In this document: piece after piece, positions 3,951-63,920 of the stretch | How the letters are laid out: each line of letters starts with the position of its first letter | How positions within the stretch are numbered: position 1 is the first letter of the stretch | Assembly (NCBI GenBank): GCA_034423015.1 | Contig: DAOUJG010000053.1 | Span: 68,565 to 132,564, forward strand | Length of the DNA stretch: 64,000 nucleotides | Reading direction: 5' to 3' | From: Dehalococcoidia bacterium | GTDB taxonomy: Bacteria; Chloroflexota; Dehalococcoidia; Lucifugimonadales; JAGWBF01 | Made by a program: the position numbers and the translations under genes | The notes under the pieces: generated by a model | Seen by the model: the letters and a program-made list of their open reading frames with translations, nothing else | What the model was told of the DNA's origin: nothing | The model's database searches: none

Positions 3951-4415
3951 CTAGCCCAGCTTGTCCAGCTCCGCCAGGATGTCCCTGGGATCGGGGAGGT
4001 TGGGGGGCGAGTACTCCTGCCTGAACCGGATGACCCCGCCCTTGTCCACGATTATGATGGCCCGGCGGCTGGCGCCCCGTTCCTCGTTCCACAGCCCGTA
4101 GGACTTGACCATCTCCCCGTGGGGATGGAAGTCGGAGAGGAGGGGGTAGGGTATGTTCCCAAGGCCCGTCGAGTAGGCGCGGTGGGAGTGTTGGCTGTCA
4201 CAGCTTATGCCCAGGACCTGGGCATCCTTCTCCTCGAACTGGCCGTTGTACTGCCGGAACGAGGAGACCTGGTTCGTTCACCCGCCTGTGAAGTCGAAGA
4301 CGTGGAAGGAGAGCACCACGTTCTTCTGGCCCCGGTACTGGCCCAGGGAAACGTCGTCTCCCAGGCTGGAGGGCATCGTGAAATCGGGAGCGGGCTGTCC
4401 CACCTCGGCTGCCAT
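3951..4415 (-). CDS. peroxiredoxin (AhpC/TSA/Bcp type) with in-frame UGA at the peroxidatic Cys position; selenocysteine candidate
   Basis: A single frame from ATG 4413-4415 to TAG 3951-3953 reads MAAEVGQPAPDFT...VVLSFHVFDFTGG-TGA(4278-4280)-TNQVSSFRQYNGQFEEKDAQVLGISCDS...IIIVDKGGVIRF...LDKLG. The TGA aligns with Cys of the FTGVCTDE motif in the adjacent paralog. Confidence 0.75.
4230..4266 (-). promoter_or_regulatory. candidate bacterial SECIS hairpin downstream of the UGA at 4278-4280
   Basis: On the mRNA, CUCCUCG...CGAGGAG forms a 7-bp stem starting 11 nt after the UGA. A short inner CCG/CGG pairing is possible and the apical region contains GU. Not folded computationally. Confidence 0.4.
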
Positions 4416-4456: not shown

Positions 4457-4933
4457 CTATCCTCCCAGGCCGCTCAGGGCCTGCCTGATCTCGTCGTAGT
4501 CGGGCTCCGCGGTGACCTGTGGGGCGACCCACTTGTACCGGACCACCCCGCCCTTGTCCACCACGAACACCGCCCGGTTGGCCGCCGTGTACCCCTCCAT
4601 CCCGGCCAGGTTGGGGAGGGCGACCCCGTACTGGTTCACCACCTGGCGGGTGAAGTCGCTCAGCAGGGGGAAGTTGAGGTTGTTGGCGTCGGACCACGCC
4701 TTCTGGGCGAAGGGCGGGTCTACGCTTATGCCCAGCACCTGGGCGTTCAGGGAGTTGAACTGGTCGGCCCGGTCCCGCAGGGCGCACATCTCGTCGGTGC
4801 AGACCCCGGTGAAGGCGCCGGGAAAGAAGGCGAGGACCACGTTCTGCCCGTGGAGGTCGCCCAGGCTCCTGCTCTTCAGGTCGGTGCCGTGGAGGGTGAA
4901 GTCCGGGGCCGCCTGGCCGACGTCGACAGACAT
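4457..4933 (-). CDS. peroxiredoxin (AhpC/TSA/Bcp type, Cys form)
   Basis: 158 aa. It has the PxxxTxxC-type motif [12 protein letters not shown] and [12 protein letters not shown]. Confidence 0.9.
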
Positions 4934-5108
4934 GGAATAACTCCCCTTTCCAGCTACGTTGGACTCTCTACCGGCCCGTCCGGGCGTGGGGCGGCTACAT
5001 TATAGCGCATAGACGGCTGGCATACCACCGAGGGGCCCCCGGCGACGGCCCCAACGACGGTCGCCCGCTGACAATCCGCGGTCGCCCTCTCCGTCTGGAT
5101 TTGATAAG

Positions 5109-5836: not shown

Positions 5837-6475
5837 ATGCCCGCCAACCAAGTTCTTGTGTTCCCTCGGGCGATTTTCGGGGACGTTTTCTCGCTTTTGC
5901 CGTGGGACTCGATTCAGGAACAGATCGAGGAGATCGAAAGCACCTTTTCGTGGCTGCATCGGCCGGATGCGGAGCTGTCGCTCCATCTGGTCCAGGCAAT
6001 TCCGTGCGGATTCATTCGAGACCACGAAGGCCGGTACTGTGTGCTCAGGCGCGTGGAAAACTCCCGAAACGACCTCAACAGGAAGTTGAGCCTGGTTGTG
6101 GGGGGGCATATCGACAAGCCGCACAAGGACAGGTCGTTTCGGGCCACCATGTCGTTGAATCTCATGCGGGAGTTGGACGAGGAGGTTGGAATTCGCCCCG
6201 AGGAGCCCCCCAGTCCCGTCGGTGTAATTATCGACGATTCATCCATACAAGCTTCCCGGCACGTGGCGTTTCTGCATGAGATAACATCCGAGCAAGTCTT
6301 GCCAAGGGCGCCGGAAGAGTTTGCGGTGAGGTCGAAATACTCAGGCACGTTCATGCCTGCAGCCCGGATCGCTGAGATGTCCCACGGGTTCGACCCGTGG
6401 TCGAGACTGCTAATCGAGGAGTATGTCTGCCGGGGGGATGTCCGCCCGCAAGCCCGGCAGCGTTCGTTGTTCTGA
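5837..6475 (+). CDS. Nudix hydrolase
   Basis: Nudix box GGHIDKPHKDRSFRATMSLNLMRELDEEVGI (REx2EExGU core). The gene starts 5 nt after the kinase-like gene stop and shares its low GC. Confidence 0.7.
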   Translation: MPANQVLVFPRAIFGDVFSLLPWDSIQEQIEEIESTFSWLHRPDAELSLHLVQAIPCGFIRDHEGRYCVLRRVENSRNDLNRKLSLVVGGHIDKPHKDRSFRATMSLNLMRELDEEVGIRPEEPPSPVGVIIDDSSIQASRHVAFLHEITSEQVLPRAPEEFAVRSKYSGTFMPAARIAEMSHGFDPWSRLLIEEYVCRGDVRPQARQRSLF

Positions 6476-8267: not shown

Positions 8268-8296
8268 TTGTAGGCTATCGCTGCACATGCTATAAT
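8268..8296 (+). promoter_or_regulatory. sigma70-type promoter of metH
   Basis: TTGTAG, 17 nt, then TATAAT (8291-8296), followed by GGG. The ATG lies 30 nt downstream. Confidence 0.5.
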
Positions 8297-8325
8297 GGGT
8301 CGACCCTCGCCGCGGGCAAGACTGC

Positions 8326-11300
8326 ATGAACGAGAACGAACGCATCGACTCCCTCAAGTCCCTTCTGCAACGGCGAATACTGGTGCTGGACGGCGCCATG
8401 GGGACGTCCATCCAGGCCCTGGACCTGGGGCCGGAGGACTTCGGCGGAGCGGAGTACGAGGGGTGCAACGAGTACCTGGTCGTAACCCGGCCAGACGCCA
8501 TCTTAGGCATACACCGGAGCTACCTGGACGCCGGATGCGACATCCTGGAGACCAACACCTTCGGCGCCACGCCCCTGGTGCTGGCCGAGTACGGCCTGGC
8601 CCACGAGGCCCGGCGCATCAACCGGGAGGCCGCGGCCCTGGCGCGGCAGGCGGCGGACGAAGTCGCCACTGCCGACAGGCCGCGTTTCGTCGCCGGGTCC
8701 ATGGGCCCCACCACCAAGACAATCTCGGTGACCGGCGGCGTGACCTTCGACGAGCTGGCTGACTCGTTCCACGAGCAGGCGCTGGGCCTGTTGGAGGGGG
8801 GCGCCGACCTGCTCCTCCTGGAGACTGGCCAGGACACCCTGAACATCAAGGCCGGCCTGGAGGGCATCGACCACGCCTTCCAGGAGCTTGGGAGAGAGCT
8901 CCCGGTGGCGGTGCAGGGGACCGTGGAGCCCATGGGCACCCTGCTGGCGGGACAGGACGTGGAGGCGCTCTACACGTCCCTCGCCCACCGGGACCTGCTG
9001 TGGATAGGGCTGAACTGCGCCACCGGGCCGACCTTCATGACCGACCACGTCCGCACCCTGGCGGCCCTGTCCCGGTTCCCGGTAGCGTGCCTGCCCAACG
9101 CAGGCCTGCCCGACGAGTTCGGCAAGTACAACGAGACGCCGGAGATGATGGCGCACACCCTGGGCCTCTTCATCGCCTCCGGCTGGGTCAACCTCATCGG
9201 CGGGTGCTGCGGCACGACGCCGGAGCACATACGCCTGCTGGTCGAGGCCGCCGAGGGCGCCCCCGGCAGGCCCCTCGCCGCCGGGCGGGATACACGGGTG
9301 TCGGGCATCGAGACGGTGGTGGTGGACGAGGACGTCCGGCCCGCCATCGTCGGAGAGCGCACCAACGTCCTGGGGAGCCGCCGCTTCCGCCGCCTCATAA
9401 ACCAGGGCAGCTTCGAGGAGGCCGCCGAGGTGGGACGCCGTCAGGTGCGAAACGGCGCCCACGTGCTGGACGTGTGCCTCCAGGACCCAGACCGGGACGA
9501 GGTGGCCGACGTGACCACCTTCCTGGATGTGCTCAACAAGAAGGTCAAGGCGCCGGTCATGATCGACTCCACCGACGCCCAGGTGATCCACGAGGCCTTG
9601 AAGCGGCTCCAGGGCAAGTCCATCATCAACTCTGTCAACCTGGAGGACGGCGAGGAGCGGTTCCAGGCGGTTGTCCCGCTGGCCCGGCGGTACGGTGCGG
9701 CCCTGGTCGTGGGCTGCATCGACGACGACAAGGAGCAGGCCCAGGCCGTCACCCGGCAGCGCAAGCTGGACGTGGCCCTCAGGTCCTACGACCTCCTGAC
9801 CGGGAAGTATGGCGTGGCCCCCGAGGACCTGATCTTCGACCCGTTGGTGTTCCCGGCGGGGACGGGGGACGAGAACTACGTTGGGTCGGGAGAGGAGACC
9901 ATCGAGGGGGTACGGCTCATCAGGCAGGCGCTGCCCCGCTGCAAGACCGTCCTTGGCATTTCCAACGTCTCCTTCGGACTGCCCCCCTCGGGCCGGGAGG
10001 TGCTCAACTCGGTGTTCCTGTACCACTGCGTCCAGGCCGGCCTGGACATGGCCATCGTCAACTCGGAGTTGATGCAGCGGTACACGTCCATCCCGGAGGA
10101 GGAGCGGAGGCTGGCCGAGGACCTGATCTGGAACCGGGGCGAAGACCCGGTGGCCGCCTTCGCGGCCCACTTCAGGGACCGGCCGCCCAAGTCGACCACC
10201 GAGGAGCGGCGTAGCCTGCCCCTGGACGAGCGGTTGGCCATGGCCATCATCGAGGGGTCCAAGGAGGGGCTGGCCGAGGACCTGGACGAGGCCATGGCCG
10301 GGCGGACCCCGCTGGAGATAATCAACGGTCCGCTGATGGCGGGGATGGACGAGGTGGGGCGACAGTTCAACGCCAACCAGCTCATCGTGGCTGAGGTGCT
10401 CCAGTCGGCGGAGTCCATGAAGTTCGCGGTGGCCCACCTGGAGCCCCACATGGAGCGGGTGGACTCGGCCACCCGGGGCAAGGTGGTGCTGGCCACGGTG
10501 AAGGGCGACGTCCACGACATAGGCAAAAACCTGGTGGAGATCATCATCTCCAACAACGGTTACCAGGTGATAAACCTGGGGATCAAGGTGCCGCCCCAGG
10601 ACCTGATCGAGGCCTACCGGGAGCATAACCCGGACATCATCGGGCTGTCGGGCCTGCTGGTGAAGTCCGCCCAGATGATGGTGGAGACGGTGCGGGACTT
10701 TCGCCAGGCGGGCGTGAGTGCGCCGGTGCTGGTGGGTGGCGCCGCCCTCTCCAACCGGTTCACCCGGCTGCGCATCGCGCCGGAGTACGACGGGCTGGTG
10801 GCCTACGCCTCCGACGCCATGACGGGCCTGGCTCTGGCCAACACCATCCAGGAGGCCGACGAGCGGGAGCGGCTGGCGGCGTCGCTGACGGCCGAGTCCC
10901 GGGACCTCCTGGAGAGCGAGGAACGACGCCGGCAGGCGGAGCCGGCCGCCGGCGCGCTGCCCCCCAAGGCGGCCCAGGTCAGGCACGACTTCCCCATCCC
11001 CAACCCGCCCGACCTGCTCCTGCACGTCATACGGGACCACGACCTGCAGGAGATATTCCCGTATATCAACCCCCAGATGCTGTACGCCCGCCACCTGGGC
11101 TTCAAGGGACGGTTTGCCGATGCCCTGTCCCAGGGGGACCCGGCGGCGGTGGAGCTGCGGGAGTCGGTGCGGCGGATAGAGGACGAGGTTCTGGCCCGGG
11201 ACGACATCAACGCCGGCGCCGTCTTCAAGTTCTTCCCCTGCCGCTCCGATGGCCGGCAGGTGCTGGTGTACGCCCCCGACGGGGCGACGGTCCTGGAGCG

Positions 11301-11835
11301 GTTCCGCTTCGGCCGCCAGTCCCGGGGGGACGGGCTGTGCCTGGCCGACTACCTGCTACCCGGGGACTCTGGGGAGGTCGACTACCTGGCCATGTTCGTA
11401 ACCACCGTGGGACCGGGGGTCCGCGACCTGGCCGAGGCGTGGAAGCAGGAGGGGCGCTACCTGGACTCCCACGTCCTCCAGGCGCTGGCCCTGGAGAGCG
11501 CCGAGGCGTTCGCGGAGCTGCTGCACCAGCGCATTCGCCGCATGTGGGGGTTTGGCGACCCCGAGGGCACCACCTACGTGGACCTGTTCCGGACCCGGTA
11601 CCGGGGCCGCCGCTACTCCTTCGGCTATCCCGCCTGCCCCAGGCTGGAGGACCAGGCCCAGCTCTTTCGCTTGCTGGGAGCCACGGCCGAGCTCGGGGTG
11701 GAGCTGACCGAGGAGTTCATGATGGACCCCGAGTCATCGGTCTCGGCGCTGGTCTTCCATCACCCCGACGCCAAGTACTTCAACCTGGACGAGGCGGACA
11801 TCCAGCGGCTGGAGGCCGAGACAGGGGCCGGCTAG
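8326..11835 (+). CDS. metH: cobalamin-dependent methionine synthase
   Basis: 1169 aa. Hcy-binding, pterin-binding, B12-binding (ATVKGDVHDIGKN) and AdoMet-activation domains follow one another colinearly. Confidence 0.95.
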   Translation: MNENERIDSLKSLLQRRILVLDGAMGTSIQALDLGPEDFGGAEYEGCNEYLVVTRPDAILGIHRSYLDAGCDILETNTFGATPLVLAEYGLAHEARRINREAAALARQAADEVATADRPRFVAGSMGPTTKTISVTGGVTFDELADSFHEQALGLLEGGADLLLLETGQDTLNIKAGLEGIDHAFQELGRELPVAVQGTVEPMGTLLAGQDVEALYTSLAHRDLLWIGLNCATGPTFMTDHVRTLAALSRFPVACLPNAGLPDEFGKYNETPEMMAHTLGLFIASGWVNLIGGCCGTTPEHIRLLVEAAEGAPGRPLAAGRDTRVSGIETVVVDEDVRPAIVGERTNVLGSRRFRRLINQGSFEEAAEVGRRQVRNGAHVLDVCLQDPDRDEVADVTTFLDVLNKKVKAPVMIDSTDAQVIHEALKRLQGKSIINSVNLEDGEERFQAVVPLARRYGAALVVGCIDDDKEQAQAVTRQRKLDVALRSYDLLTGKYGVAPEDLIFDPLVFPAGTGDENYVGSGEETIEGVRLIRQALPRCKTVLGISNVSFGLPPSGREVLNSVFLYHCVQAGLDMAIVNSELMQRYTSIPEEERRLAEDLIWNRGEDPVAAFAAHFRDRPPKSTTEERRSLPLDERLAMAIIEGSKEGLAEDLDEAMAGRTPLEIINGPLMAGMDEVGRQFNANQLIVAEVLQSAESMKFAVAHLEPHMERVDSATRGKVVLATVKGDVHDIGKNLVEIIISNNGYQVINLGIKVPPQDLIEAYREHNPDIIGLSGLLVKSAQMMVETVRDFRQAGVSAPVLVGGAALSNRFTRLRIAPEYDGLVAYASDAMTGLALANTIQEADERERLAASLTAESRDLLESEERRRQAEPAAGALPPKAAQVRHDFPIPNPPDLLLHVIRDHDLQEIFPYINPQMLYARHLGFKGRFADALSQGDPAAVELRESVRRIEDEVLARDDINAGAVFKFFPCRSDGRQVLVYAPDGATVLERFRFGRQSRGDGLCLADYLLPGDSGEVDYLAMFVTTVGPGVRDLAEAWKQEGRYLDSHVLQALALESAEAFAELLHQRIRRMWGFGDPEGTTYVDLFRTRYRGRRYSFGYPACPRLEDQAQLFRLLGATAELGVELTEEFMMDPESSVSALVFHHPDAKYFNLDEADIQRLEAETGAG

Positions 11836-15831: not shown

Positions 15832-16404
15832 TTATTTCAGCGCGGCCTTGACCTCTTGGACCCTGGTCCGGAAATCGTCGTCGGTCATGACCGGGGCGAG
15901 GGCCCCGAGTCGGACGGGCTCCGGGAGCTCGACCCAGGACTTGCACCCGGCGAAGGACCGGGAGAAGGGCACGGTGTGCGGCTCCTCCAGGCGGTACAGC
16001 CGTACCAACAGTATGGCCAGCGGGTGTCTTGGCTTCCAGTGAAGGCGCTTCTGCGCGTAGTCCGATGTCCAGATGTGGTGGGGCTCCAAGCTGTCCACGG
16101 CGGCCTGTTCGCTCAGCTCGATGGCTTCTTCGACCCTGGCCCAGTGGCCGAAGGTGATGGCGCCGTTGCCCCCGGCCTCGGCGACCACCCGGGACAACTC
16201 CTGGTGATACTCCTCCTTGAGCAGCTCCGGCTTCTGGTGCTCGAAGGTCGGATACATCAGGAACTCCGGATGTAGCACCCGGAAGTCCTTGCCATCCTCG
16301 TGGATGCCGCCCTTGCGGAGGAGGAGGATCTGGTCGCCCCGGTCGAAGGCGCGAATGGTGACGGCCCACTCCTTGAAGGCGACATTGCAGGAGAGATGGT
16401 GCAT
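15832..16404 (-). CDS. DUF1802-family protein
   Basis: AFKEWAVTIRAFDRGDQILLLRKGGIHE...MYPTFEHQ matches my recollection of DUF1802. ATG 16402-16404. Confidence 0.65.
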   Translation of the reverse strand: MHHLSCNVAFKEWAVTIRAFDRGDQILLLRKGGIHEDGKDFRVLHPEFLMYPTFEHQKPELLKEEYHQELSRVVAEAGGNGAITFGHWARVEEAIELSEQAAVDSLEPHHIWTSDYAQKRLHWKPRHPLAILLVRLYRLEEPHTVPFSRSFAGCKSWVELPEPVRLGALAPVMTDDDFRTRVQEVKAALK

Positions 16405-16522
16405 GGTCTCGCTCCGGGCGGGCACGGGCGGCCGAATGGTGCCCGCGAATATCCAACAATGTTATCACCAACGGTCAACTGCCTCAACCGGTGGCGCTGC
16501 TCCTTTCCCTTCCCACTGCGGC

Positions 16523-16531
16523 TATAATGGG
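16523..16531 (+). promoter_or_regulatory. -10 element TATAATGGG upstream of the reductase gene
   Basis: TATAAT plus a GGG discriminator lies 26 nt before ATG 16557. The -35 is weak. Confidence 0.4.
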
Positions 16532-16556
16532 ACGGTACCGAGACATAAGGGGGACG

Positions 16557-17708
16557 ATGACGGGAAAGAGATACGACGTCCTGATAGTGGGGGCCGGGCC
16601 CGCGGGCACGACCCTCGCCTACGACCTGGCGCGCCGGGGTGTCAGCACCCTCATCGTCGAGCGGGAGAGGCTGCCCCGTTACAAGACCTGAGGCGGCGGT
16701 GTGAATGAAAGGGCCGTTCGGCTCTTGGATTTCCCGATAGCGCCCGTGGTCCAGAGGACCGTGGACCGGGCGTGGCTCACCTACAGGATGTCCGGTGGCT
16801 TCGTCCGCAGCTTCCATCAGCCCTTTACGTACATGACGATGCGGGAGCGCCTGGACTCCTACCTGGCCCAGCGGGCCGTGTCGGTGGGGGCCGAGGTCAT
16901 GGACGGGGCCCGTGTCGTGGGAGTCGAAGCCGGGGACGGGCCCGTACGCGTTTCCGTGGCCGGGGAGACCATCGAGGGCCGGGTGCTGGTGGGGGCCGAC
17001 GGGGTGAACAGCGTCGTTGCCCACCAGGCGGGACTCCTGAGGGATGCGGAGGTCGGCGTCGGGCTGGAGAGCGAGGTCTACCCTGCCCCCGGCATCCTGG
17101 AGCCCTGGAGGGACACGGCCGGCCTGGATTTCGGGACCCTCCGGGGCGGCTACATGTGGGTGTTCCCCAAGGAGGACCACCTGTCCATCGGCGTGGCGGG
17201 GTTCGCCCGGTGGGGTCCCAGGATGCGGGGCCTCCTGGACGCCTACCTGGGCTTCCTGGGGTTGGAGGGCGCGGAACGCCGACTGACCAGGGGACACCGG
17301 CTGGCGCGACGCAAGAGGGGGATGGCCATCCAGTCTGGCCCTGTCCTGCTGGTGGGAGATGCGGCGGGGCTGATGGACTTCTGGACCGGGGAGGGCATCT
17401 ACTACGCCGTCAAGAGCGCCCAGGCGGCGGCACCGGCCATCGCCGCGTACCTGGAGGGTGCGACCCCGGACTTCGCCGGCTACGAGAAGACCATCGACGC
17501 CGAGCTGATGCCCGAGCTGCAGATAGCCCGGACGCTGACGAGGATCGCCGTGTGGTTCCCCAAGCTCACATACACGTTGATGAAGAGGTCGGACTGGGTG
17601 TGGAACGCCGGGTGCCAGGTGCTGCGGTCCGAGAAGACCTATCAGGACGTAAGGGGTAGGATGGGGCCCCTCACCTTCCTCTTCGACCTGGCCGGTAAGG
17701 GGACGTGA
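16557..17708 (+). CDS. geranylgeranyl-reductase-family FAD flavoprotein with in-frame UGA at the conserved CGG-motif Cys; selenocysteine candidate
   Basis: Track ORFs 16491-16691 and 16701-17708 are in the same frame. The joined product reads MTGKRYDVLIVGAGPAGTTLAYDLARRGVSTLIVERERLPRYKT-TGA(16689-16691)-GGGVNERAV...LLVGDAAGLMDFWTGEGIYYAVKS. The dinucleotide-binding motif and the GD motif are intact. Confidence 0.75.
16709..16726 (+). promoter_or_regulatory. candidate bacterial SECIS hairpin
   Basis: AAGGGCC-GUUC-GGCUCUU forms 7 bp (including one G-U pair) with a GU-containing tetraloop. It starts 17 nt after the UGA. Confidence 0.45.
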
Positions 17709-29818: not shown

Positions 29819-30034
29819 ATGAGCAACACCATTTTAGCCGCCGACACGGCGCTGCGGCTGTCGCGCTATCTCGGTACGACCCCGCAGCTCTGGCTCAATC
29901 TTCAGAAGACCTTCGATCTGCGTGTGGCGCAGATAGAGACGGGCAAGCACATCGAGGACCTCGTACAGCTCAGAGGTACTGCGGAGATGCCTGGTAGCTC
30001 GGCCGGCAGCGCTATACCCTACCAGGAGCGGTAG
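29819..30034 (+). pseudogene. N-terminally truncated HigA-like HTH antitoxin remnant
   Basis: Only the second half of the Xre/HigA HTH is present (ADTALRLSRYLGTTPQLWLNLQKTFDLRVAQ). No HigB partner is present, and the 3' end overlaps the convergent thiD. Confidence 0.55.
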
Positions 30035-30819
30035 AAGTGGTTCAGGGGGCCGTGGCCCTGGCCCATGGGGAACGCCCTGGACATGGCCTCGGTGACGTAC
30101 TCCTTGGCCCCGGCCACGGCGTCCACGAGGTCGTGTCCCAGGGCAAGCCCGGCGGCGATGGCCGAGGCGAAGGTGCAGCCGGTGCCGTGGGTGCTGGCGG
30201 TGTCGACCCGCTTCCCCGGGAGCTCCAGGAACCTGCTGCCGTCGTAGTACAGGTCCACCGGGTCACCGGGCAGGTGTCCCCCTTTGACCACCACCGACCG
30301 GGCGCCCATGTCGAGGATGCGCCGGGCCGCCCGCCGGGCGTCCTCCCCCGAGCGGACCTCTATTCCGGTCAACGTCTCCGCCTCGGGGACGTTGGGGGTC
30401 ACGACGGCGGCCAGGGGCAGCAGGGTCGACCTCAGGGCGTCCACCGCCTCCTCCCGCAGCAGCCGGTCGCCGCTCTTGGCGACCATCACGGGGTCCACCA
30501 CCAGCCGGGTCACGCCCAGACGGCGCATCTCGGCGGCCACGGTCTTGATGATGGCGCTGCTGGACAGCATCCCGGTCTTGACGGCGTCGGCGCCCAGGTC
30601 CGTCATGACGGCCTGGACCTGGGCCGCGATCATCTCCACGGGCACCTCGTGGACGCCGGTCACGGCCACCGTGTTCTGGGCGGTGACGGCTGTGACCACC
30701 GAGGTCCCGTACACGCCGAAGGCGGCGAAGGTCTTCAGGTCGGCCTGAATTCCCGCGCCGCCCCCCGAGTCGGACCCGGCGATGGTCATGGCCCTGGGGA
30801 CTCGGTCTACTCCGGCCAC
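30019..30819 (-). CDS. thiD: hydroxymethylpyrimidine / phosphomethylpyrimidine kinase
   Basis: TIAGSDSGGGAGIQADLKTF and GTGCTFASAIAAGLA motifs. The start is ambiguous between GTG 30819 and ATG 30789. Confidence 0.9.
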   Translation of the reverse strand: MAGVDRVPRAMTIAGSDSGGGAGIQADLKTFAAFGVYGTSVVTAVTAQNTVAVTGVHEVPVEMIAAQVQAVMTDLGADAVKTGMLSSSAIIKTVAAEMRRLGVTRLVVDPVMVAKSGDRLLREEAVDALRSTLLPLAAVVTPNVPEAETLTGIEVRSGEDARRAARRILDMGARSVVVKGGHLPGDPVDLYYDGSRFLELPGKRVDTASTHGTGCTFASAIAAGLALGHDLVDAVAGAKEYVTEAMSRAFPMGQGHGPLNHFYRSW

Positions 30820-31463
30820 GCCTCCCCCTTGTAGGCCATCTCCCAGAACATGTACTCGTACCTCAGGGTGGCGAGGAAGGTGCGCTCCAGGTGGGCGCCG
30901 TGGCCGATGCGGGCGCCGTCCAGGGTGCTACGGAGCCACGCCACGAAGTCGCCCAGCTCCTTGCCGGCGTGTATGTCGATCCAGAGCTGGTAGTGCCTGT
31001 TGGCCGGGCGCTTGCCCGCGGCGTCCAGCCGCTGGGCCCAGTCCAGGTAGGGCCACTCGATGCCCAGCAGGGTGGTGAGTATCTCGTGGAAGGAGCCGTC
31101 CCGGGCCACCTGGCGCAGGAACCCGTTCTGGGCGTGGGAGGTGGGCAGGTATTGCAGGTCCGCTACGTCTGCCGCCGACAGTCCCTTCTCGCGGAAGTAG
31201 TCCCGGAACATCCCCTCCTCGGCGCCCAGCGCGCCGTGGACGAAGGCCGCCAGGGGCCGGGCGTGGTCGAAGTCGGGCGCCTTGACGACCCCGGCGCACA
31301 TGAGGGCTATCCAGGGTTTCAGGAACAGGTAGTCCTGCCGGAAGTAGACGTCCCACTTGTCGGCGGGCAGGGTCCCCTCCCCAAGCTCCAACACGAAGGG
31401 GTGGGTGACGGTCCGCTCCCACAGGCCCCCGACGCTGCTCCTGAGGTCGTCGCTCAACGCCAT
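30807..31463 (-). CDS. tenA: TenA-family thiaminase II / aminopyrimidine aminohydrolase
   Basis: ATG 31461-31463. HPFVLELGEGTLPADKWDVYFRQDYLFL is typical of TenA. Confidence 0.85.
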   Translation of the reverse strand: MALSDDLRSSVGGLWERTVTHPFVLELGEGTLPADKWDVYFRQDYLFLKPWIALMCAGVVKAPDFDHARPLAAFVHGALGAEEGMFRDYFREKGLSAADVADLQYLPTSHAQNGFLRQVARDGSFHEILTTLLGIEWPYLDWAQRLDAAGKRPANRHYQLWIDIHAGKELGDFVAWLRSTLDGARIGHGAHLERTFLATLRYEYMFWEMAYKGEAWPE

Positions 31464-31477
31464 ATCGTCACCTCGCC

Positions 31478-32557
31478 CTACTGGGCTCCCTCCACGAACC
31501 TGTTGGTGAAGGCGGCGGCGCCGTCCACGGGCTCGGGCACCTGACCGTTGTCCAGGAGCCACTGGGCGAACCCGGACCATTTCTCCAGGGTCTGCCACCC
31601 CACGGGCTGGTCGGTCTTCCACAGGGGCGCGATGACCCGGATGCCGGGGCGCTCGATGGCCTCGTCGACCTCCTCCTCGGTGCGCTCCAGGAGCACCTCC
31701 ACGGCGGCGTCGGGGTCCGCGGCGGCGTCGGCGTAGCCCTTGACGACGGCGCGGACGAACCTCTGCACAAGGTCCGGGTCCTCCTCAACCATCTTCTCGC
31801 TGGCCACCATCACCAGCTCGTAGTAGTCGGGCACTCCCCACTGCTCCAGGCGCATGACGTCGACGGGGTATCCCTGGTTCTCCATGAGTATGGACTCGTG
31901 GCTGAAGTAGCACCCGATGCAGGCGTCCACCGTGCCGCTGATGAGGCTCTCGGCCAGGTTGAAGCCCACGTTGACCAGCTCCACCTCCTCCAGCCCCCCG
32001 GCCACGCCGTCGTACTTGAGCATGGTGTCCAGCAGGGGCTCGTTGGTGGGTATCCCGGGATATCCGACCTTCCTGCCCGCCAGGTCTGCCGGGCGGGATA
32101 TGCCCGACGCCTTGAGGGACTGGACCGAGTTGAGGGGGTGCTGCACCAGCCCTATCACGGAGACGACGGGCACCCCCTGGGACCGGGCGATGAGGACGTC
32201 CGGCTGGTAGTTGATGCCGAAGTCGTCGGCCCCCGCCGCCACCGTCTGGTTCACCGTGGAGGGGTCCACCGGGGTGTACATCTGCACCTCGAGGCCCTCG
32301 TCGGCGAAGTAGCCCTTCTCCTGGGCCATGTAGAGGCCCGCATGGTTGGCGTTGGGGTACCAGTCCAGGGCCAGCCGGATTGAGACCGGCTCCGGCGTGG
32401 ACGTGGGCGCGGGCGTAGGCACGGTGGTGGCGGTGGGGACCGGCGCCTCCGTGGGAGCGGGCGTCGGCACAGGGGTGGGAGTAGGGGATGCGCAGGCGGC
32501 CGCCGCCAACAGCACCGGTATGATCGCCAGGAGCACCAGCCTGAGCCTTGCTAGCAT
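31478..32557 (-). CDS. NMT1/THI5-like substrate-binding lipoprotein (ThiY-like)
   Basis: ATG 32555-32557. It has lipobox AAAC and a Pro/Thr linker. LALDWYPNANHAGLYMAQEKGYF is typical of the NMT1/THI5 family. Confidence 0.85.
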   Translation of the reverse strand: MLARLRLVLLAIIPVLLAAAACASPTPTPVPTPAPTEAPVPTATTVPTPAPTSTPEPVSIRLALDWYPNANHAGLYMAQEKGYFADEGLEVQMYTPVDPSTVNQTVAAGADDFGINYQPDVLIARSQGVPVVSVIGLVQHPLNSVQSLKASGISRPADLAGRKVGYPGIPTNEPLLDTMLKYDGVAGGLEEVELVNVGFNLAESLISGTVDACIGCYFSHESILMENQGYPVDVMRLEQWGVPDYYELVMVASEKMVEEDPDLVQRFVRAVVKGYADAAADPDAAVEVLLERTEEEVDEAIERPGIRVIAPLWKTDQPVGWQTLEKWSGFAQWLLDNGQVPEPVDGAAAFTNRFVEGAQ

Positions 32558-32601
32558 GTTCAGCCTCCCTAGTGTGTGTTGTTGTCCAACGTTGGGTCCC
32601 G

Positions 32602-33434
32602 CTATTCCAGGCCCGGCACGCGGTTGCGGCGGGCGTCGTGGTACCAGGGCAACAGCCGCCTCTCGGCCAGGGCCGCGACCAGGAAGAGGGCTATCCCCAT
32701 CAGGCACAGCAGGAAGATGGACGCCAGGACCCGGTCGGTGAGGAACTGGGACTTGGACCGGATGGCCAGGTAGCCCAGCCCCTCGCTGGAGCCGACCCAC
32801 TCTCCCACGACGGCGCCGATGACGCTGGCCGTAACGGCTATCTTGATCCCCGAGAAGAGGGACGGCAGGCTCGACGGCACCTGCACCTTGGCGAAGATCT
32901 GCCGGCGGCTGGCGCCCAGGGCCCGCAGCAGGCTGACCATGTCCGGGTCGGCGGAGCGCAGGCCGTCGGCGGTGTTGACCACTATGGGGAACAGGGCGAT
33001 GAGGGCGACCACGATGACCTTGTGCTGCATGCCGTACCCGACCCAGATGAGGAGCAGGGGCGCGATGACGATCCAGGGCACCGTCTCCGAGGCGATGACC
33101 GGCGGGTACAGGACCCGGGCCATGGTGGAGGATATGGAGATCAGGCCGGCCAGCGTCACGCCCGCGACCAGGGCGATGGCGAAGCCCGCCAGCACCTCCG
33201 CCAGGGTGACCCACGTATGGGAGGCAAGCAGGGCCCTGGCCTCCCACATCTCCACGGCGACCCCCGAGGGCGGCGGCAGCTTCCAGCCCGGGACGTCGTT
33301 GACCGCCACCAGGACCTCCCACGCCCCGATCACGACCCCCGCGACCAGGACCGCCGGAAGCCACCGGCGGAGGATGGCCAGACCCCGGGAGAGCGTTCCG
33401 GGCCCGGCCTCGGCGTCCCGGGCGGCGTCCACGG

Positions 33435-33438
<4 letters not shown>
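32602..33438 (-). CDS. ABC transporter permease (NitT/TauT family)
   Basis: ATG 33436-33438 overlaps the ATPase stop by 4 nt. It has multiple TM segments and the EAA-like loop ...DGLRSADPDMVSLLRALGASRRQIF... Confidence 0.85.
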
Positions 33439-34247
<809 letters not shown>

Positions 34248-34253
34248 TGCGTC

Positions 34254-34290
34254 AAAAAGAGGAAGGCCGCCATTCAGGTATGGCGGCCTT
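34254..34290 (-). terminator. intrinsic terminator (expression platform of the TPP riboswitch)
   Basis: On the mRNA, AAGGCCGCCAUaccugaAUGGCGGCCUU (an 11-bp perfect stem) is followed by CCUCUUUUU. It ends 7 nt before the ATPase ATG. Confidence 0.75.
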
Positions 34291-34320
34291 ACCAAACTCA
34301 AAGACTGCACCGGACGCCAA

Positions 34321-34407
34321 TTCCCTACGCTGGCATTACCCAGATCAGGTCGCAAGGGTCGACGGCATCGACGGCCGCCCTCTCAGCCTGGCTAAACCAA
34401 GCTCCCC
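34321..34407 (-). promoter_or_regulatory. TPP (THI-box) riboswitch aptamer
   Basis: The mRNA reads GGGGAGC...GCCAGGCUGAGAGGGC...ACCCUUGCGACCUGAUCUGGGUAAUGCCAGCGUAGGGAA. It contains the conserved CUGAGA, ACCUGAUCUGGnUAAUGCCAGCG and AGGGAA blocks. Confidence 0.9.
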
Positions 34408-35129
34408 TACGGGCCTAGCTGTTCGATTGTGCGCGTATTATAGGTTCCGTGCCGGGAGGTGTCAACAGAGGCCCTTCCCGTCGCGCACAGGTCGCGGAGG
34501 CAGCACTCGTCGCAAAGGGGCGTCTTCTTGCACGTCTCCTTGGCGTGCCGGTCCAGCAGGGCGTGGTACTCGTTGAAGAGGGACGGGTCGTGGGGCAACG
34601 CGTCGTGGAAGAGCCGCTGGTAGTCGCCGTAGAGTCCCCTGTCGGGGGCCAGGCCCATGCGGCCCAGGATGCGGCGGGTGTAAGAGTCGATGACGAAGGA
34701 GGGTCGTCCCGCGGCGTACAGGAGGATGTCGTCGGCCGTCTCGTCGCCGATGCCGTGGATGGAGAGCAGCTCTTCCCGCAGGGCCCCGGTGTCGCCGGAG
34801 AGGAGCGCCTCCAGGTCGCCGTCGTGGCGGTCCCACAGGTGGTCGATGAAGGCCTTCAGCTTTCGCGCCTTGGCGTTGAAGTAGCCCGAGGGCCGCACAA
34901 GCTCCGCCAGGCGCTCCTCGGGGCAGGCCCGGAGGCCGCGAGCCGACATGAGCCCGGCGTCCCTCAGGTTGGCCAGGGCCTTCTCCACGCCCGTCCATGC
35001 CACGGCCTGGGTCAGGATGGCCCCCAGGACCACCTCCAGGGGCGTCTCCGCGGGCCACCAGTGCTGGGGGCCGTAGCGCAGGTACAGGCGTCGGTACGTC
35101 TCCATCAGGACGCCGGTGTCCTCCGCCAT
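34407..35129 (-). CDS. endonuclease III-like HhH-GPD DNA glycosylase family protein
   Basis: It has the HhH region LLSIHGIGDETADDILLY and the 4Fe-4S loop C-x6-C-x2-C-x5-C (CKKTPLCDECCLRDLC). Confidence 0.8.
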   Translation of the reverse strand: MAEDTGVLMETYRRLYLRYGPQHWWPAETPLEVVLGAILTQAVAWTGVEKALANLRDAGLMSARGLRACPEERLAELVRPSGYFNAKARKLKAFIDHLWDRHDGDLEALLSGDTGALREELLSIHGIGDETADDILLYAAGRPSFVIDSYTRRILGRMGLAPDRGLYGDYQRLFHDALPHDPSLFNEYHALLDRHAKETCKKTPLCDECCLRDLCATGRASVDTSRHGTYNTRTIEQLGP

Positions 35130-48274: not shown

Positions 48275-49975
48275 TTAGGTGGGGACCCCGGGCACGTGCT
48301 CGGGCTCCTCGATCAGCTCCGCCAGGCTCTGGCCCGCCGGTATCATCGGGTAGACGTTCTCCTCGGGCTCCACCATGAAGTCCACCACGACGGGCCCGGG
48401 CTCCTGCATGGCCCACTCGATGGCCGCCGGCACCTGTACCTTGTCGGTGACTCGCATGCCCGCTACGCCGTATGCCTCGGCCAGCTTCACGAAGTCCGGG
48501 TTCCGGCTGTAGGAGGTGGCGGTGTACTGCTTGTCGTAGAAGAAGTCCTGCCACTGGCGGACCATGCCCAGGTAGTTGTTGTTGATGATGGCGAACTTCA
48601 CCGCGATGTTGTTCTCCACGGCGGTGGCCAGGTCGCACAGGGTCATCTGGAAGCCGCCGTCGCCGGCGATGGACCAGACGTGCTTGTCGGGCTTTCCGAC
48701 CTTGGCGCCCAGGGCCGCGGGGACCTCGAAGCCCATGGCCCCCAGGCCGCCCGAGGTCACCAGATGGTTGGACTCCTTGAACGCGTAGTGCTGGGCGGCC
48801 CACATCTGGTGCTGCCCCACTCCCGTGACTATGATGGCCCGGCCGTCGGTGATCTCCGACAGGGTCTTCAGGATGTACTGGGGCAGGAGCTGGTCCGTCT
48901 CCCTTATCTTGTGGGAGGGGTGCCGCATCCGCAGCTCCTCGATGCGCTGGACCCACTCCGGGTGGACGGCGGAGGGCACGCTGGGCAGGAGCGCTTGCAG
49001 GATCCTCTTGAGGTCCCCCACGATGGGCACGGTGGCCCGGACGTTCTTGCTTATCTCAGACGGGTCCACGTCCACGTGGATGACCTTGGCGTTGGGGGCG
49101 AAGGCGCTGAGCCGGCCGGTCACCCTGTCGTCGAAGCGCATCCCCAGGGAGATGAGCAGGTCCGCCTCGTCTATCGCCTTGCTGGCGTAGGTCATCCCGT
49201 GCATGCCCGGCATGCCCACGTTCAGGAAGTGGTCCATTGGGAAGGAGCTGATGCCCAGCAACGTGGTGATGACCGGTATCTGGGCTTTCTCGGCCAGCTC
49301 CCGGACCTCGTCGTAAGCCCTGGAGATGATGATGCCGTGGCCCGAGAGGATGATGGGCCTCTCGGCCTGGGCTATGAGCCGGGCCGCCTTCTGTATCTGG
49401 GCGGGGTGCCCGTCCAGGGTGGGCTTGTAGCCCGGCAGGTCCACCGACTCCGGGTAGCTGAACTCGGCCCGGTCGTCCTGCAGGACGTCCTTGGGGATGT
49501 CCACGAGGACGGGGCCTGGGCGGCCGGTGTTGGCTATGTGGAAGGCCTCCTTTATCGCGCCGGGGATCTCGGAGGCGTCCATGATGAGATAGTTGTGCTT
49601 GGTGACGGGCAGGGTAATCCCGGAGATGTCCGTCTCCTGGAAGGCGTCTCGGCCTATGGCGCCCCTTGGCACCTGCCCGGTGATGGCCACGATGGGGATG
49701 GAGTCCATCTGGGCGCAGGCTATTCCCGTCACCAGGTTGGTGGCCCCGGGACCGGAGGTGGCGATGCACACGCCCACCTTTCCGGTAACCCGGGCGTAAC
49801 CGTCCGCGGCCATGGCGGCGGCCTGTTCGTGCCGCACCAGTATGTGACGGAGCTGGGGGTACTCCGGGAGTGCGCCGTAAAGGGGGAGCACCGCGCCTCC
49901 GGGCAGCCCGAAGGCCACGTCGACGCCCTCCTTGAGGAGACTTTCGCAAACCAGCTGTGCGCCTGTCAGTTTCAT
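48275..49975 (-). CDS. ilvB: acetolactate synthase large subunit
   Basis: ThDP motif GGLGAMGFEVPAALGA...GDGGFQM. ATG 49973-49975 (MKLTGAQ) is preferred over the track start GTG 49984 because AGGTG sits 6 nt upstream. Confidence 0.95.
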   Translation of the reverse strand: MKLTGAQLVCESLLKEGVDVAFGLPGGAVLPLYGALPEYPQLRHILVRHEQAAAMAADGYARVTGKVGVCIATSGPGATNLVTGIACAQMDSIPIVAITGQVPRGAIGRDAFQETDISGITLPVTKHNYLIMDASEIPGAIKEAFHIANTGRPGPVLVDIPKDVLQDDRAEFSYPESVDLPGYKPTLDGHPAQIQKAARLIAQAERPIILSGHGIIISRAYDEVRELAEKAQIPVITTLLGISSFPMDHFLNVGMPGMHGMTYASKAIDEADLLISLGMRFDDRVTGRLSAFAPNAKVIHVDVDPSEISKNVRATVPIVGDLKRILQALLPSVPSAVHPEWVQRIEELRMRHPSHKIRETDQLLPQYILKTLSEITDGRAIIVTGVGQHQMWAAQHYAFKESNHLVTSGGLGAMGFEVPAALGAKVGKPDKHVWSIAGDGGFQMTLCDLATAVENNIAVKFAIINNNYLGMVRQWQDFFYDKQYTATSYSRNPDFVKLAEAYGVAGMRVTDKVQVPAAIEWAMQEPGPVVVDFMVEPEENVYPMIPAGQSLAELIEEPEHVPGVPT

Positions 49976-49999
49976 GCCGTTCACCTGCCGGGAGACATC

Positions 50000-50225
50000 A
50001 AAAAAACCCGTCCCCTCAAGGGACGGGCTGTTCCCGCGGTACCACCCTTCTTCTCCGGCCGTTCCGGAGCTCCTCTGGGACCTTAACGGTGCCCTGCCGG
50101 CCCTCCCTACTGGGCGTTCAGGAGGGCTGCTCGGGGGCGAGTTCGGGGCTCTTCCGCCGCCGGTTTCTCAGCATGCAACCGGCTCTCTTGGACGGGGACA
50201 TCCCCTACTACTCCCCTTCATAGCG
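50000..50225 (-). promoter_or_regulatory. T-box leader (tRNA-sensing riboswitch) of the ilv-leu operon, probable Leu (CUC) specifier
   Basis: The mRNA contains the exact T-box core AGGGUGGUACCGCG (50035-50047), the terminator CCCGUCCC-uuga-GGGGACGGG plus U7 (50000-50027), an AAGAGA bulge with the distal hairpin GCCGGUU/AACCGGC, and an internal loop AGUAGUA / GAA-CUC-G (CUC at 50139-50141). Confidence 0.85.
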
Positions 50226-50247
50226 TCAATATGAATCTCGGTAGGGA

Positions 50248-50709: not shown

Positions 50710-51882
50710 TCATATAACCACGGCGTCGTCAATGGAGGGCCAGCTAAGCTCGAATAGCTGGTCGAAGGCCAGGGCCCAGGGGGGCCTCAGGTATCCCAAC
50801 GCCCGCACGTCCTCGAACCAGGTGCTCAGCGGCGAGTACCAGGTGTACGAGGACCCGCCCGACAGCTTGCAGAGGCGAGTCAACACCGACTCCGACAGGG
50901 TCGCGATGCTCTCCTTGGCCAGCAGCGTGTTGTACAGCGTCTGGGTACCGTTGTCGAACTCGGTCAGGGCGGCTTCGAACGCCTTGTCCACCAGCCACGC
51001 CTCCTGCTCGGCGTGGCTCCACTCCACCCGCTGGTACGCCCGCAGCGCGGAGCCCCGGGCCATCTCACGGGAAAGCCTCTCCCGGACGAACTCCATGGCC
51101 GTGTCCACCACGCCGACGACCACGGAGGTGAACATCATCTGCCCCAGGGGTCCGGCGGCCTGCTGCAGCTCCATCGCGTGGCCCGGCCAGGCCGACCGCA
51201 CCACCGGGAAGTCCGTGAACTCGAAGGCGTGGCTGTTGGTGGACATCATCCCGCGCCCCGCCCACGGCTCCGTCAGCCTCATGCCCGTGGTGCCGTCCCA
51301 CGGCGTGTTCCGCACGTCCATGTAGAACAGGTCGGCCAGAGTGTCTCCCTCGGCCAGGGCCCGGGTTGTCATGAACGACGTGATGCCCGAGCCGCTCCCG
51401 AAGTGCTTCCGCCCGCTCAGGCGGTACTTGTGGGGCTCTCCGGTGGGCCGCACCGCCGAGCGGGTCCTGGCCACGTCGCCGCCGCTCCCGGGCTCGGACA
51501 CGATGGTGCCCCACCAAGCCCCGTCCAGGACCGTATCGAACACCTCCCTGCGCTGCCGTGTCCACTCCTCCATGTACGAGTCCGGCACCTGGGGCACCCT
51601 CCACGAGGCCAGCACGCCGGGGTGCATGGCGCTGACCAGAGAGACCGAGGGGTCGCCGTGGGCCAGTATCCTGAGGGAGGTGCAGATGGGCCGGGCCGAC
51701 TGGGCCAGGCTCTCCCACGTGCCCCCAAGCTCGGCCGGCACCGACATCAGGTGCACGCCCAGGTCCAGGAGCCTGTCGAAGTCCTCCTTGCGGGCCTCCC
51801 TGCGAGACTGGCGCTCCTGCCTCTCGGAGGCGAACTCACGGGCCAGGGCCGGCGCCGCCTCCAGGATCGATTGTATGCTCAT
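50710..51882 (-). CDS. acyl-CoA dehydrogenase-fold flavoprotein (ACAD type 2 / sulfur-related oxidoreductase-like)
   Basis: ATG 51880-51882 overlaps the rhodanese gene stop by 4 nt. The N-terminal DFDRLLDLGVHLMSVPAELGG, the central EPGSGGD...K.F.SGSG and the C-terminal helical domain are colinear with the ACAD fold. Confidence 0.75.
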   Translation of the reverse strand: MSIQSILEAAPALAREFASERQERQSRREARKEDFDRLLDLGVHLMSVPAELGGTWESLAQSARPICTSLRILAHGDPSVSLVSAMHPGVLASWRVPQVPDSYMEEWTRQRREVFDTVLDGAWWGTIVSEPGSGGDVARTRSAVRPTGEPHKYRLSGRKHFGSGSGITSFMTTRALAEGDTLADLFYMDVRNTPWDGTTGMRLTEPWAGRGMMSTNSHAFEFTDFPVVRSAWPGHAMELQQAAGPLGQMMFTSVVVGVVDTAMEFVRERLSREMARGSALRAYQRVEWSHAEQEAWLVDKAFEAALTEFDNGTQTLYNTLLAKESIATLSESVLTRLCKLSGGSSYTWYSPLSTWFEDVRALGYLRPPWALAFDQLFELSWPSIDDAVVI

Positions 51883-53462
51883 TGGACCACCTGATACTTT
51901 CGTCCCAGCTCCTCTTCCCAGCGGAGGTAGTGCATCATGTCGGCGTAGCCCCGGTCGGGGCCCGTGGGCACCACGTCGTTGGGAGGCGCCATCACGCCGG
52001 TGAGGCCCCTCTCCACTGCGAACCCTGCCGCCGTCCACGCGGCCAGGCCTCCGTCCAGCGCCCGCACGTCCCGGTAGCCCATGCCGGCCAGGGTCGCGGC
52101 GGCCAGGCAGGAGGCGACGCCGTCGGAGCAGGTGACTGCCAGCGGGGCACCCTTGTTGGGGGCCACGTCCCCTGCTTGAATCTCCAGCCAGCCCCTGGGG
52201 ACCCAGGTCGACCCCGGCACGTGGCCGGCGGCGAACTCCCGGCTGGTATCCACGAATATGACGGTCCGTTCCGCGTCGTCCTTCAGCTCGGAGGCGCCGG
52301 CCAGACGGACCGTCCTGCGCGCGTCCTCGAGGCCGAAGGGAGGCCGGTCGGGGATGCCCGTCTCCAGGGGAAGCCCGGCCGCGCTCCAGGCGGCCGTCCC
52401 TCCCCGCAGGGCGTGGACGTTGGGATAGCCCATCTGCAGGTACCAGGAGGCAGTCACGGTGGACCGGGCCACCCCGTCACAGGCGAAAACGATGACGCCG
52501 TCCCTGACTCCCACCAGGTCGTCGCTGCGCTGGACCGCCTGTCCCCCGGGGAACCATCGGAAGCCGGGAATGTGCCCGGCCCGGTACTCCTCCATCGTGC
52601 GCACGTCTACCAGGTAGACCGGTCCCTCTTGGGCCTTGGCCATCAGACTCTGGAGCTGCGGGGCGTCGACGTACCTGACCCCGTCCTCCGCGGCCAACCG
52701 GGCCGCGTACTCTTCGGCCGCCGCAAGGCCCTCCCGGGAGGGAGGCGGAAGCCGGACGCGGTCGGCGCCCGTCTCCAGCTCCAGCCCCGCCAGCACCCAG
52801 CCCGAGGTGCCGTTCTTCAGGCCGTATACGTTGGCAAGGCCCATTCGTTGAAGGGCCCGCGTGCCGATGATGCTCCGGGTGCGGCCGGCGCAGTTGACCA
52901 CCACCGTCGTGCCTTCGCCGGCTTCCCTCACGATGTCGGTCACCCGGAGGGCCAGCTCTCCTCCCGGCACGCTGCGGCCGCCGGGTATGCAGAAGCGCGC
53001 GTACTCCTGGGGGGTGCGGGTGTCCAGGATGACCAGCCGCTCCCCGCGCTGCACCCTGGCATGGAGGTCGTCGGCCTCCATCTCGGGCACCTGGTGGACC
53101 ACCTCGACCCGCTCCCCGAAGTCCTTGCTGGGGACGTTCATACCCCACTCGGTGGGGTAGCCGTCGGTGGTCCAGCGGTTGACTCCACCCTCCAGCACCG
53201 AGACGTTCCCGTATCCCATCCGCTCCAGAGTCGACGCCGCCAGCCGGGCCCTCCGGCCGTCGTCGTCGCACACCACCACATGGGCCCCGGGGAAGGGCAC
53301 CAGGTGACCCATCTCAAACTCCAGTAGCCGTCTGGGCAGTGAGGAGAAGCCCGCGATGTGGCTGCTGTTGAACTCGCCGTGCTCCCGCACGTCGACGAGG
53401 GCAACGCCGGCCCCCGAGTCCAGCAGGTCGTTAAGGCCCTTTGACGAGATGCTCGAAGCCAT
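51879..53462 (-). CDS. four-domain rhodanese-like sulfurtransferase
   Basis: Four repeats each carry an active-site loop Cys: VVVCDDDGRRA, VVNCAGRTRS, VFACDGVARS and AVTCSDGVAS. Confidence 0.85.
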   Translation of the reverse strand: MASSISSKGLNDLLDSGAGVALVDVREHGEFNSSHIAGFSSLPRRLLEFEMGHLVPFPGAHVVVCDDDGRRARLAASTLERMGYGNVSVLEGGVNRWTTDGYPTEWGMNVPSKDFGERVEVVHQVPEMEADDLHARVQRGERLVILDTRTPQEYARFCIPGGRSVPGGELALRVTDIVREAGEGTTVVVNCAGRTRSIIGTRALQRMGLANVYGLKNGTSGWVLAGLELETGADRVRLPPPSREGLAAAEEYAARLAAEDGVRYVDAPQLQSLMAKAQEGPVYLVDVRTMEEYRAGHIPGFRWFPGGQAVQRSDDLVGVRDGVIVFACDGVARSTVTASWYLQMGYPNVHALRGGTAAWSAAGLPLETGIPDRPPFGLEDARRTVRLAGASELKDDAERTVIFVDTSREFAAGHVPGSTWVPRGWLEIQAGDVAPNKGAPLAVTCSDGVASCLAAATLAGMGYRDVRALDGGLAAWTAAGFAVERGLTGVMAPPNDVVPTGPDRGYADMMHYLRWEEELGRKYQVVQ

Positions 53463-53483
53463 CGGCGTTGGGTGCCGGGCCGC

Positions 53484-63041: not shown

Positions 63042-63245
63042 TTACCCGCCGCCCACGGGCCTGACGATCTCCAGCACGTCGCCCTCCTTCAAGAGGACCT
63101 CCGGGTACCTGTCCTTCTCCAGGACGATGCCGTTGTACCCCACGGCCACGTGCTGCAGGTTCACGTCGTAGCTCTCGAGGAAGCTCACCAGGTCCACGGA
63201 GCCGTCCACGTATCGGGGCTTGCCGTTGACCGTCAGCGTTATCAT
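63042..63245 (-). CDS. thiS: sulfur carrier protein ThiS
   Basis: 67 aa with a ubiquitin-like size and a C-terminal ...VRPVGGG. Confidence 0.9.
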   Translation of the reverse strand: MITLTVNGKPRYVDGSVDLVSFLESYDVNLQHVAVGYNGIVLEKDRYPEVLLKEGDVLEIVRPVGGG

Positions 63246-63916: not shown

Positions 63917-63920
63917 GGCG

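Follow-up and report, generated by a model that had tools for sequence, protein, structure and literature searches.

A geranylgeranyl-reductase-family flavoprotein with a conserved in-frame UGA at the flavin-proximal cysteine: a likely new selenoprotein family in uncultured Dehalococcoidia

We analyzed a 64,000-nucleotide stretch of contig DAOUJG010000053.1 from a Dehalococcoidia bacterium (this whole stretch is called the window here, and all positions refer to it unless another locus is named). Positions 16557-17708 very likely encode one reductase of the geranylgeranyl reductase (GGR) family, a flavin adenine dinucleotide (FAD)-dependent protein of 383 residues in which the UGA at codon 45 is read as selenocysteine (Sec). 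Two open reading frames (ORFs), 16491-16691 and 16701-17708, are in frame with each other and are separated by the TGA at 16689-16691 plus three codons. Between the ATG at 16557 and the terminal TGA at 17706-17708, the frame is interrupted by this one internal stop and by no other. An initial annotation, made from the letters of the sequence alone, had joined the two ORFs into a single flavoprotein and proposed it as a possible selenoprotein; its ORF coordinates, shared frame, start codon, product length and GAGPAG and GDAAG motifs all match the sequence. In ENA, the window belongs to ERZ23495130, on scaffold NGUY21-1_SAMN17524321_METAG-scaffold_427. The positions of these features are collected in Table 1.

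The joined product belongs to the GGR family, as had been claimed. For the protein searches, the UGA was replaced by Cys in the query, which then scored 199.9 bits against TIGR02032 (GG-red-SF; curated cut-off 158.8), with residues 6-295 aligned to positions 1-297 of the 297-position profile. The protein also matched PF01494 (FAD_binding_3) at 85.4 bits and, weakly, Pyr_redox_2 at 27.9 bits. All of the equivalog models stayed under their cut-offs, and identification of the protein as BchP/ChlP (155 bits vs. 343) or MenJ (64 bits vs. 700) was rejected on these scores; the DGGGPL reductases were likewise far below theirs. Within NCBIfam release 20, no selenoprotein-specific model ranks above TIGR02032 for the joined protein. 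The window protein carries the features expected of the family, namely GxGxxG with an acidic residue closing strand 2 (E35, in TLIVERE), YxWxFP and GDAAG followed by G-x-G, and residues Y199, W201, F203 and P204 of the YxWxFP motif are invariant across the homolog alignment. To obtain a fold, we modelled a proxy, the nearest full-length Cys homolog (P0054), which is 45% identical to the window protein. The model of this proxy had a pLDDT of 93, and its top match in the PDB was 3oz2 (E 1.8e-25, TM 0.73), which gives it the GGR three-domain fold.

The closest solved relative by sequence is likewise 3oz2, the DGGGPL reductase of Thermoplasma, and in this comparison the UGA stands opposite the Cys of VRCGEGL (Cys47). 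The flavin-proximal Cys, which is Cys47 of the Sulfolobus enzyme, is shared by all active GGRs, sits directly behind the isoalloxazine ring and is indispensable to catalysis by SaGGR, although its role is debated and may lie in redox modulation or in electron transfer (PMC10821996, PMC6309074, PMC12004948). The initial annotation had placed the UGA at this conserved cysteine, and the alignments bear it out. The active-site Cys column is thus aligned and conserved, yet the codon in the window is TGA, and the residue is equivalent to Cys only if the UGA is read as Sec. Judged from these alignments, Sec very probably replaces the conserved Cys that is located behind the isoalloxazine in the archaeal GGR structures.

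We then compared the window gene with its relatives, using a search space of 5.8 billion proteins. The best 53 protein matches share 57-98% identity with the window protein, and every one is an N-truncated ORF that starts just past the UGA position and has 291-335 residues; full-length homologs with the motif PRYK[TAP]C[GA]GG first appear at 48% identity or less. DNA was obtained for 11 of the truncated matches (loci L082-L092), and a 12th relative (L001) was taken from one complete Dehalococcoidia chromosome, a metagenome-assembled genome (MAG); the relatives carry Dehalococcoidia labels. All 13 members of this clade (the window and its 12 relatives) have TGA at this codon, in each case after an intact in-frame GxGxxG segment, and the same column is Cys in 79 of the 79 other family members, which come from genomes of many phyla. 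With the same codon in every clade member and Cys in every other homolog, the occurrence of an in-frame TGA at this fixed position is far beyond chance. Upstream of it, a start codon in frame (ATG, GTG or TTG) is conserved in all orthologs 4-10 codons ahead of the RYD motif, together with a purine-rich, Shine-Dalgarno-like stretch.

The coding sequence is under selection on both sides of the TGA. Pairwise identity within the clade is 55-93%, with synonymous sites almost saturated (pS about 0.65). In the 12 orthologs, the 39 codons 5' of the TGA have a ratio of nonsynonymous to synonymous differences per site (pN/pS) of 0.30 and a median dN/dS of 0.14, compared with a pN/pS of 0.36-0.37 and a median dN/dS of 0.17 for the gene 3' of the TGA (range on both sides, 0.14-0.21). 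Purifying selection on the segment ahead of the TGA is thus as strong as on the rest of the gene. A lone in-frame stop in one metagenomic contig could, taken by itself, be a nonsense mutation in a decaying gene or an error of assembly or sequencing. However, the identical TGA is found in 13 independent assemblies from several samples, and sequences as divergent as these retain low dN/dS values on both sides of it and have acquired no further stops, which leaves a pseudogene or an error with a vanishingly small probability. One locus, L087, does carry an extra C in a homopolymer (5900-5990) that shifts the N-terminal frame just 5' of the conserved TGA; this frameshift probably stems from an error in the consensus of a long-read assembly of 7x coverage.

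Stop-codon usage bears on a further explanation, that UGA has been reassigned throughout this lineage to a sense codon for Gly or Trp. In genomes with a G+C content of 67%, which is that of the window, TGA is normally the dominant stop, and dominance of TAG is unusual. Among the 49 window ORFs of at least 150 residues, TAG closes 29, TGA 15 and TAA 5, so that TGA stops are indeed fewer than TAG stops. Against a reassignment, the GGR gene itself ends in TAG or TAA in 11 of the 13 orthologs and in TGA in the other two, the window and L082. The 15 large window ORFs just counted also close with TGA, and long ORFs are generally free of internal TGA. Moreover, homologs have Cys at the aligned position in every case, and never Gly or Trp. 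There is accordingly next to no likelihood of a genome-wide reassignment. This explanation, a pseudogene and an assembly error are excluded because the TGA is conserved, both of its sides are under selection and TGA serves as a normal stop.

The way in which these genes are annotated could instead point to a true split gene, in which a 44-residue Rossmann peptide and a restarted 335-residue protein assemble with each other, or in which the downstream protein alone is made. Gene callers and GenBank annotate two pieces. The N-terminal segment is called as an ORF of its own, with 44 residues and FAD-binding Pfam matches, and databases annotate the C-terminal part alone, at 316-335 residues and with varying artificial starts; one example is MCE2404541.1 (GenBank), whose gene falls into the same cluster at 90% identity and whose product is given as an "NAD(P)/FAD-dependent oxidoreductase" of 327 residues. 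The window also has a GTG three codons past the TGA that might serve for a restart. However, the codons at which translation might restart lack conservation: at +4, 2 of 12 sequences have GTG and the rest have ATC, ATA, GTT or GTC, and at +12, 7 of 12 have TTG. The called starts correspond to V and L residues that full-length Cys homologs conserve at internal positions, and the downstream product alone would be without the GxGxxG FAD-binding motif. An arbitrary split site would also fail to explain why all 13 orthologs have the stop at precisely the column of the catalytic Cys. A split gene is therefore unlikely, and we would allow it only a slim chance.

Among 1.84 billion cluster representatives, the Sec clade forms one full-length cluster at 50% identity (P0020) together with fragment entries such as P0089. 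Three N-truncated entries, P0137, P0242 and P0271, were considered as further Sec lineages and rejected, since all three have full-length cluster mates; the truncation of P0137 and P0242 comes from short contigs that cut the genes and not from Sec. A metagenome scan with the single joined protein returned just one match, which was irrelevant (23% identity). As far as the family has been sampled, these comparisons suggest that Sec arose once within it.

A second gene in the window has a TGA at the codon for a catalytic Cys, as the initial annotation had noted. It encodes a peroxiredoxin (Table 1) whose best NCBIfam match is PrxU, at a score under the cut-off. At 60-86% identity there are dozens of close homologs annotated as fragments, which lie on long contigs and comprise 87-104 residues of the C-terminal part; the homologs that have Cys share 43-66% identity with it. 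Two contigs with truncated peroxiredoxin homologs are equal in size (988,481 and 403,691 bp) to contigs with truncated GGR genes, which suggests that the Sec-type peroxiredoxin and GGR co-occur in relatives. The TGA in the peroxiredoxin indicates, on sequence grounds, that Sec is decoded in the same genome. A further case lies in L085, where a gene of the Grx-like/AhpF-N-terminal type (L085:1-549, plus strand) is split by a TGA in the context TPS-U-GYCP (UxxC), with a 5-bp hairpin with the loop GGU 22 nt downstream of the TGA. Grx-like UxxC proteins are a listed selenoprotein family (PMC13188914), and Sec use is known for some Chloroflexi (PMC1794560).

These companion genes also help to decide which amino acid is inserted. 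The UGA might be recoded to Cys or to another standard amino acid, through a Cys-charged, SelB-dependent Sec-like tRNA, a suppressor tRNA or a near-cognate tRNA, and Cys-inserting Sec-like tRNAs do occur in some bacteria. However, the co-occurring TGA genes belong to classic selenoprotein families and have the TGA at known Sec positions (TxxU in the peroxiredoxin, UxxC in the Grx-like protein). In addition, TGA has been kept over saturating divergence instead of TGC or TGT, without obvious benefit if Cys is the result. We consider recoding to Cys or another standard residue, for which no specific evidence emerged, to be improbable, and Sec to be far more probable.

Insertion of Sec in bacteria would call for a Sec insertion sequence (SECIS) in the mRNA just downstream of the UGA, and the initial annotation had described a hairpin there as compatible with one. 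Its sequence, its position and the GU in its loop were found as described. The apical loop begins 24 nt past the UGA and opens with GU, and the hairpin is present in the centroid fold. By criteria of the bSECISearch type, the apical loop should lie some 16-37 nt past the UGA and contain G or GU. The 7-bp stem and GUUC loop are present in the window and six relatives, with some differences in stem bases, and L090 has a 5-bp stem with the loop GUGC; over the hairpin positions, 88% of the alignment cells pair. We also applied a strict SECIS-like pattern, i.e., an uninterrupted stem of 5 bp or more, 3 or more of them G-C, and a loop of 3-8 nt that has GU among its first three bases and starts 16-30 nt after the codon. 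This pattern was found in the window and in 7 of the 11 scored relatives (L087 was not scored); as a background, 5% of the codon positions of genes in the window show it. The hairpin at 16709-16726 is a plausible SECIS candidate, positionally compatible and unproven.

Several results weigh against this element and against Sec decoding in general. Neither selA, selB and selD nor a tRNA-Sec was found in the 64-kb window or in the 12 flanking loci. The covariance and fold checks proposed in the initial annotation did not favor the hairpin: there are no compensatory changes at the 7-bp stem, with no pair altered on both sides, pair counts over an extended stem give no informative covariation (the extended stem itself is not conserved), and RNAalifold fails to recover the hairpin. 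The C26-G33 pair is broken in four relatives (L001, L089, L091 and L084), which have only shorter or shifted hairpins. Folding energies are equally unremarkable, with a z-score of -0.66 for the 81-nt fold and an energy for the +9 to +44 segment that is ordinary in a GC-rich gene (ranks of 30-191 among about 358 codon positions in the orthologs). A scan with Rfam gave no match to a SECIS model. Identity of codons for the same residue is mildly raised after the TGA (0.56 vs. 0.46 gene-wide), outside the top windows. The hairpin region also encodes a conserved peptide, NERAVRLLDF, and nucleotide conservation at the hairpin is therefore confounded with coding constraint.

The mechanism that we infer would begin with recruitment of SelB, bearing Sec-tRNA(Sec), by an mRNA element just 3' of the UGA, for which the hairpin at 16709-16726 is the best candidate. 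The ribosome would place Sec at the UGA and read on to the stop at 17706. With reduced FAD, the resulting enzyme may then reduce a polyprenyl-type substrate at a C=C bond. In this reaction the selenol or selenolate would stand in for the Cys thiol beside the flavin, possibly as a redox modulator, an electron relay or a proton donor.

The archaeal GGRs (S. acidocaldarius, 3ATQ/4OPC; T. acidophilum, 3OZ2) share with the window protein TIGR02032, GxGxxG, K/R-x-Cys-G-G-G apart from its Cys codon, YxWxFP and GDAAG. Compared with these enzymes, that of the window has a UGA for the essential Cys, is only about 20-25% identical and comes from a bacterial (Dehalococcoidia) host. Bacterial members of the superfamily, including MenJ, BchP/ChlP, HepR and the sterol C-24 reductase Bsr, have the catalytic Cys and YxWxFP, and all of them use Cys.

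The initial annotation did not count the GGR family among the classical bacterial selenoproteins, and it is indeed missing from the current inventory: a review of May 2026 lists 119 prokaryotic selenoprotein families and subfamilies, with no entry for GGR, PF01494 or TIGR02032 (PMC13188914). A full-text literature search that paired selenoprotein or selenocysteine with geranylgeranyl reductase returned nothing relevant. The flavoproteins in that inventory are of the CoA-disulfide-reductase type (TIGR03385, UGxP) and the type III sulfide:quinone reductase type, which belong to another fold class (PMC13188914). They resemble the proposed reading of the window protein in that a single redox-active Cys on the flavin side has been replaced by Sec in a bacterial subset and is Cys elsewhere. 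However, they have the fold of pyridine nucleotide-disulfide oxidoreductases, with two dinucleotide-binding domains, and their Sec motifs are UGxP or HxxU, whereas that proposed for the window protein is UGGG. TIGR03385 was not among the 25 best NCBIfam matches of the window protein, which has no UGxP. The chemistry differs as well. The listed flavoproteins are CoA-disulfide and sulfide:quinone reductases, whereas GGRs act on C=C bonds, and for their active-site Cys a redox cycle has yet to be established. The PrxU-type peroxiredoxin of the same window is similar in having TGA at the catalytic Cys and close homologs that are truncated in databases. It differs in belonging to a known selenoprotein family with the thioredoxin fold and in having Cys forms among its close relatives, at 54-66% identity, whereas the GGR clade examined is uniformly TGA.

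The gene thus very probably represents a selenoprotein family that is absent from present inventories, by a Cys-to-Sec exchange of a known kind and not a new kind of system. We think it likely that this is the first selenoprotein with the GGR/PHBH fold (FAD_binding_3), with a selenol behind the flavin of an alkene reductase, that an entire clade of uncultured Dehalococcoidia carries it as a fixed trait and that it has been systematically misannotated as truncated. If so, the prokaryotic selenoproteome would gain a family, the first in the geranylgeranyl-reductase class of flavoenzymes, and dozens of database entries, MCE2404541.1 included, would be truncated annotations without the FAD-binding motif. 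The clade would also constitute a natural Cys-to-Sec experiment at the GGR active site, in which the debated role of the Cys, as a redox relay, a tuner of the flavin or a proton donor, becomes testable by comparing Sec and Cys forms, and a natural Sec variant could guide the engineering of GGRs for the production of reduced isoprenoids. It would add to the evidence of selenium use by Dehalococcoidia of soil, sediment and the subsurface.

Table 1. Positions in the window of the proposed Sec-containing GGR gene, its sequence elements and other genes
Feature	Coordinates	Strand	Remarks
Shine-Dalgarno-like sequence AAGGGGGA	16547..16554	+	2 nt ahead of the start ATG at 16557; direct sequence reading
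N-terminal coding segment, residues 1-44	16557..16688	+	Rossmann beta-alpha-beta, GAGPAG, E35, PRYKT
GAGPAG	16590-16607	+	Residues 12-17 (VGAGPAG, 11-17); 5' of the internal TGA
In-frame UGA	16689..16691	+	Proposed selenocysteine 45; context RYKT-UGA-GGGV; flavin-proximal Cys column (K-x-C-G-G-G)
C-terminal coding segment, residues 46-383, and stop	16692..17708	+	Stop TGA at 17706-17708
Hairpin AAGGGCC-GUUC-GGCUCUU	16709-16726	+	7 bp, 17 nt past the UGA; candidate SECIS apical stem-loop
YMWVFP	17151-17168	+	Residues 199-204
GDAAG	17355-17369	+	Residues 267-271, followed by TGEG
DUF1802 gene	15832-16425	-	Divergent from the Sec-type GGR gene in 12 of 13 loci (not L085)
Peroxiredoxin gene with in-frame TGA	3951..4415	-	TGA 4280..4278 at the peroxidatic Cys, FDFTGG-U-TNQ (TxxU)
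Cys-type thiol peroxidase gene	4460-4999	-	Adjoins the TGA peroxiredoxin gene

The surroundings of the gene are conserved along with it. The order PPDK, aldo-keto reductase and DUF1802 (all on the minus strand), followed by the GGR gene on the plus strand, is kept in 12 of the 13 Sec-type loci, and L085 is the sole Sec-type locus with another upstream neighborhood. This order was not seen around the loci of Cys-type homologs that were compared. The neighborhood gives no pointer to the substrate of the GGR. The linkage between DUF1802 and the GGR gene may reflect a functional tie or mere shared ancestry.

Two further candidates for Sec-related genes were rejected. A peroxiredoxin gene adjoining PPDK in L084 was considered as a truncated Sec form and is a Cys-type BCP. 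ARAGORN called a 90-nt "tRNA-Phe" at 10113-10202 on the minus strand, which might have been a miscalled tRNA-Sec; it has a GAA anticodon (position 30) and lies inside an ORF at 8296-11835 (plus strand) that matches genes called as methionine synthase (MetH) in L082 and L085, and it is probably a false positive. In a Peptococcaceae MAG (L048, at about 9136, plus strand), a gene for an HdrA-like flavoprotein reads DCSA-TGA-IST, which fits CxxU, a Sec motif already known for heterodisulfide reductase subunit A. Within the window, 51879-53483 (minus strand) encodes a protein of four rhodanese domains, one of which scores 102.8 bits against NF041203, "rhodanese-related (seleno)protein" (cut-off 115); this gene has no in-frame TGA.

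Finally, the window contains several regulatory elements and biosynthetic genes. A T-box leader lies at 50016-50230 on the minus strand (119 bits), directly upstream of ilvB, and the row ilvB-ilvN-ilvC-leuA-leuC-leuD follows behind it, from 48275-50167 down to 42280. A thiamine pyrophosphate (TPP) riboswitch at 34305-34418, also on the minus strand, is upstream of genes for an ABC-transporter ATPase and an NMT1/THI5-like protein and of thiD (30019-34382), and thiE is located at the end of the window (63242-64000).

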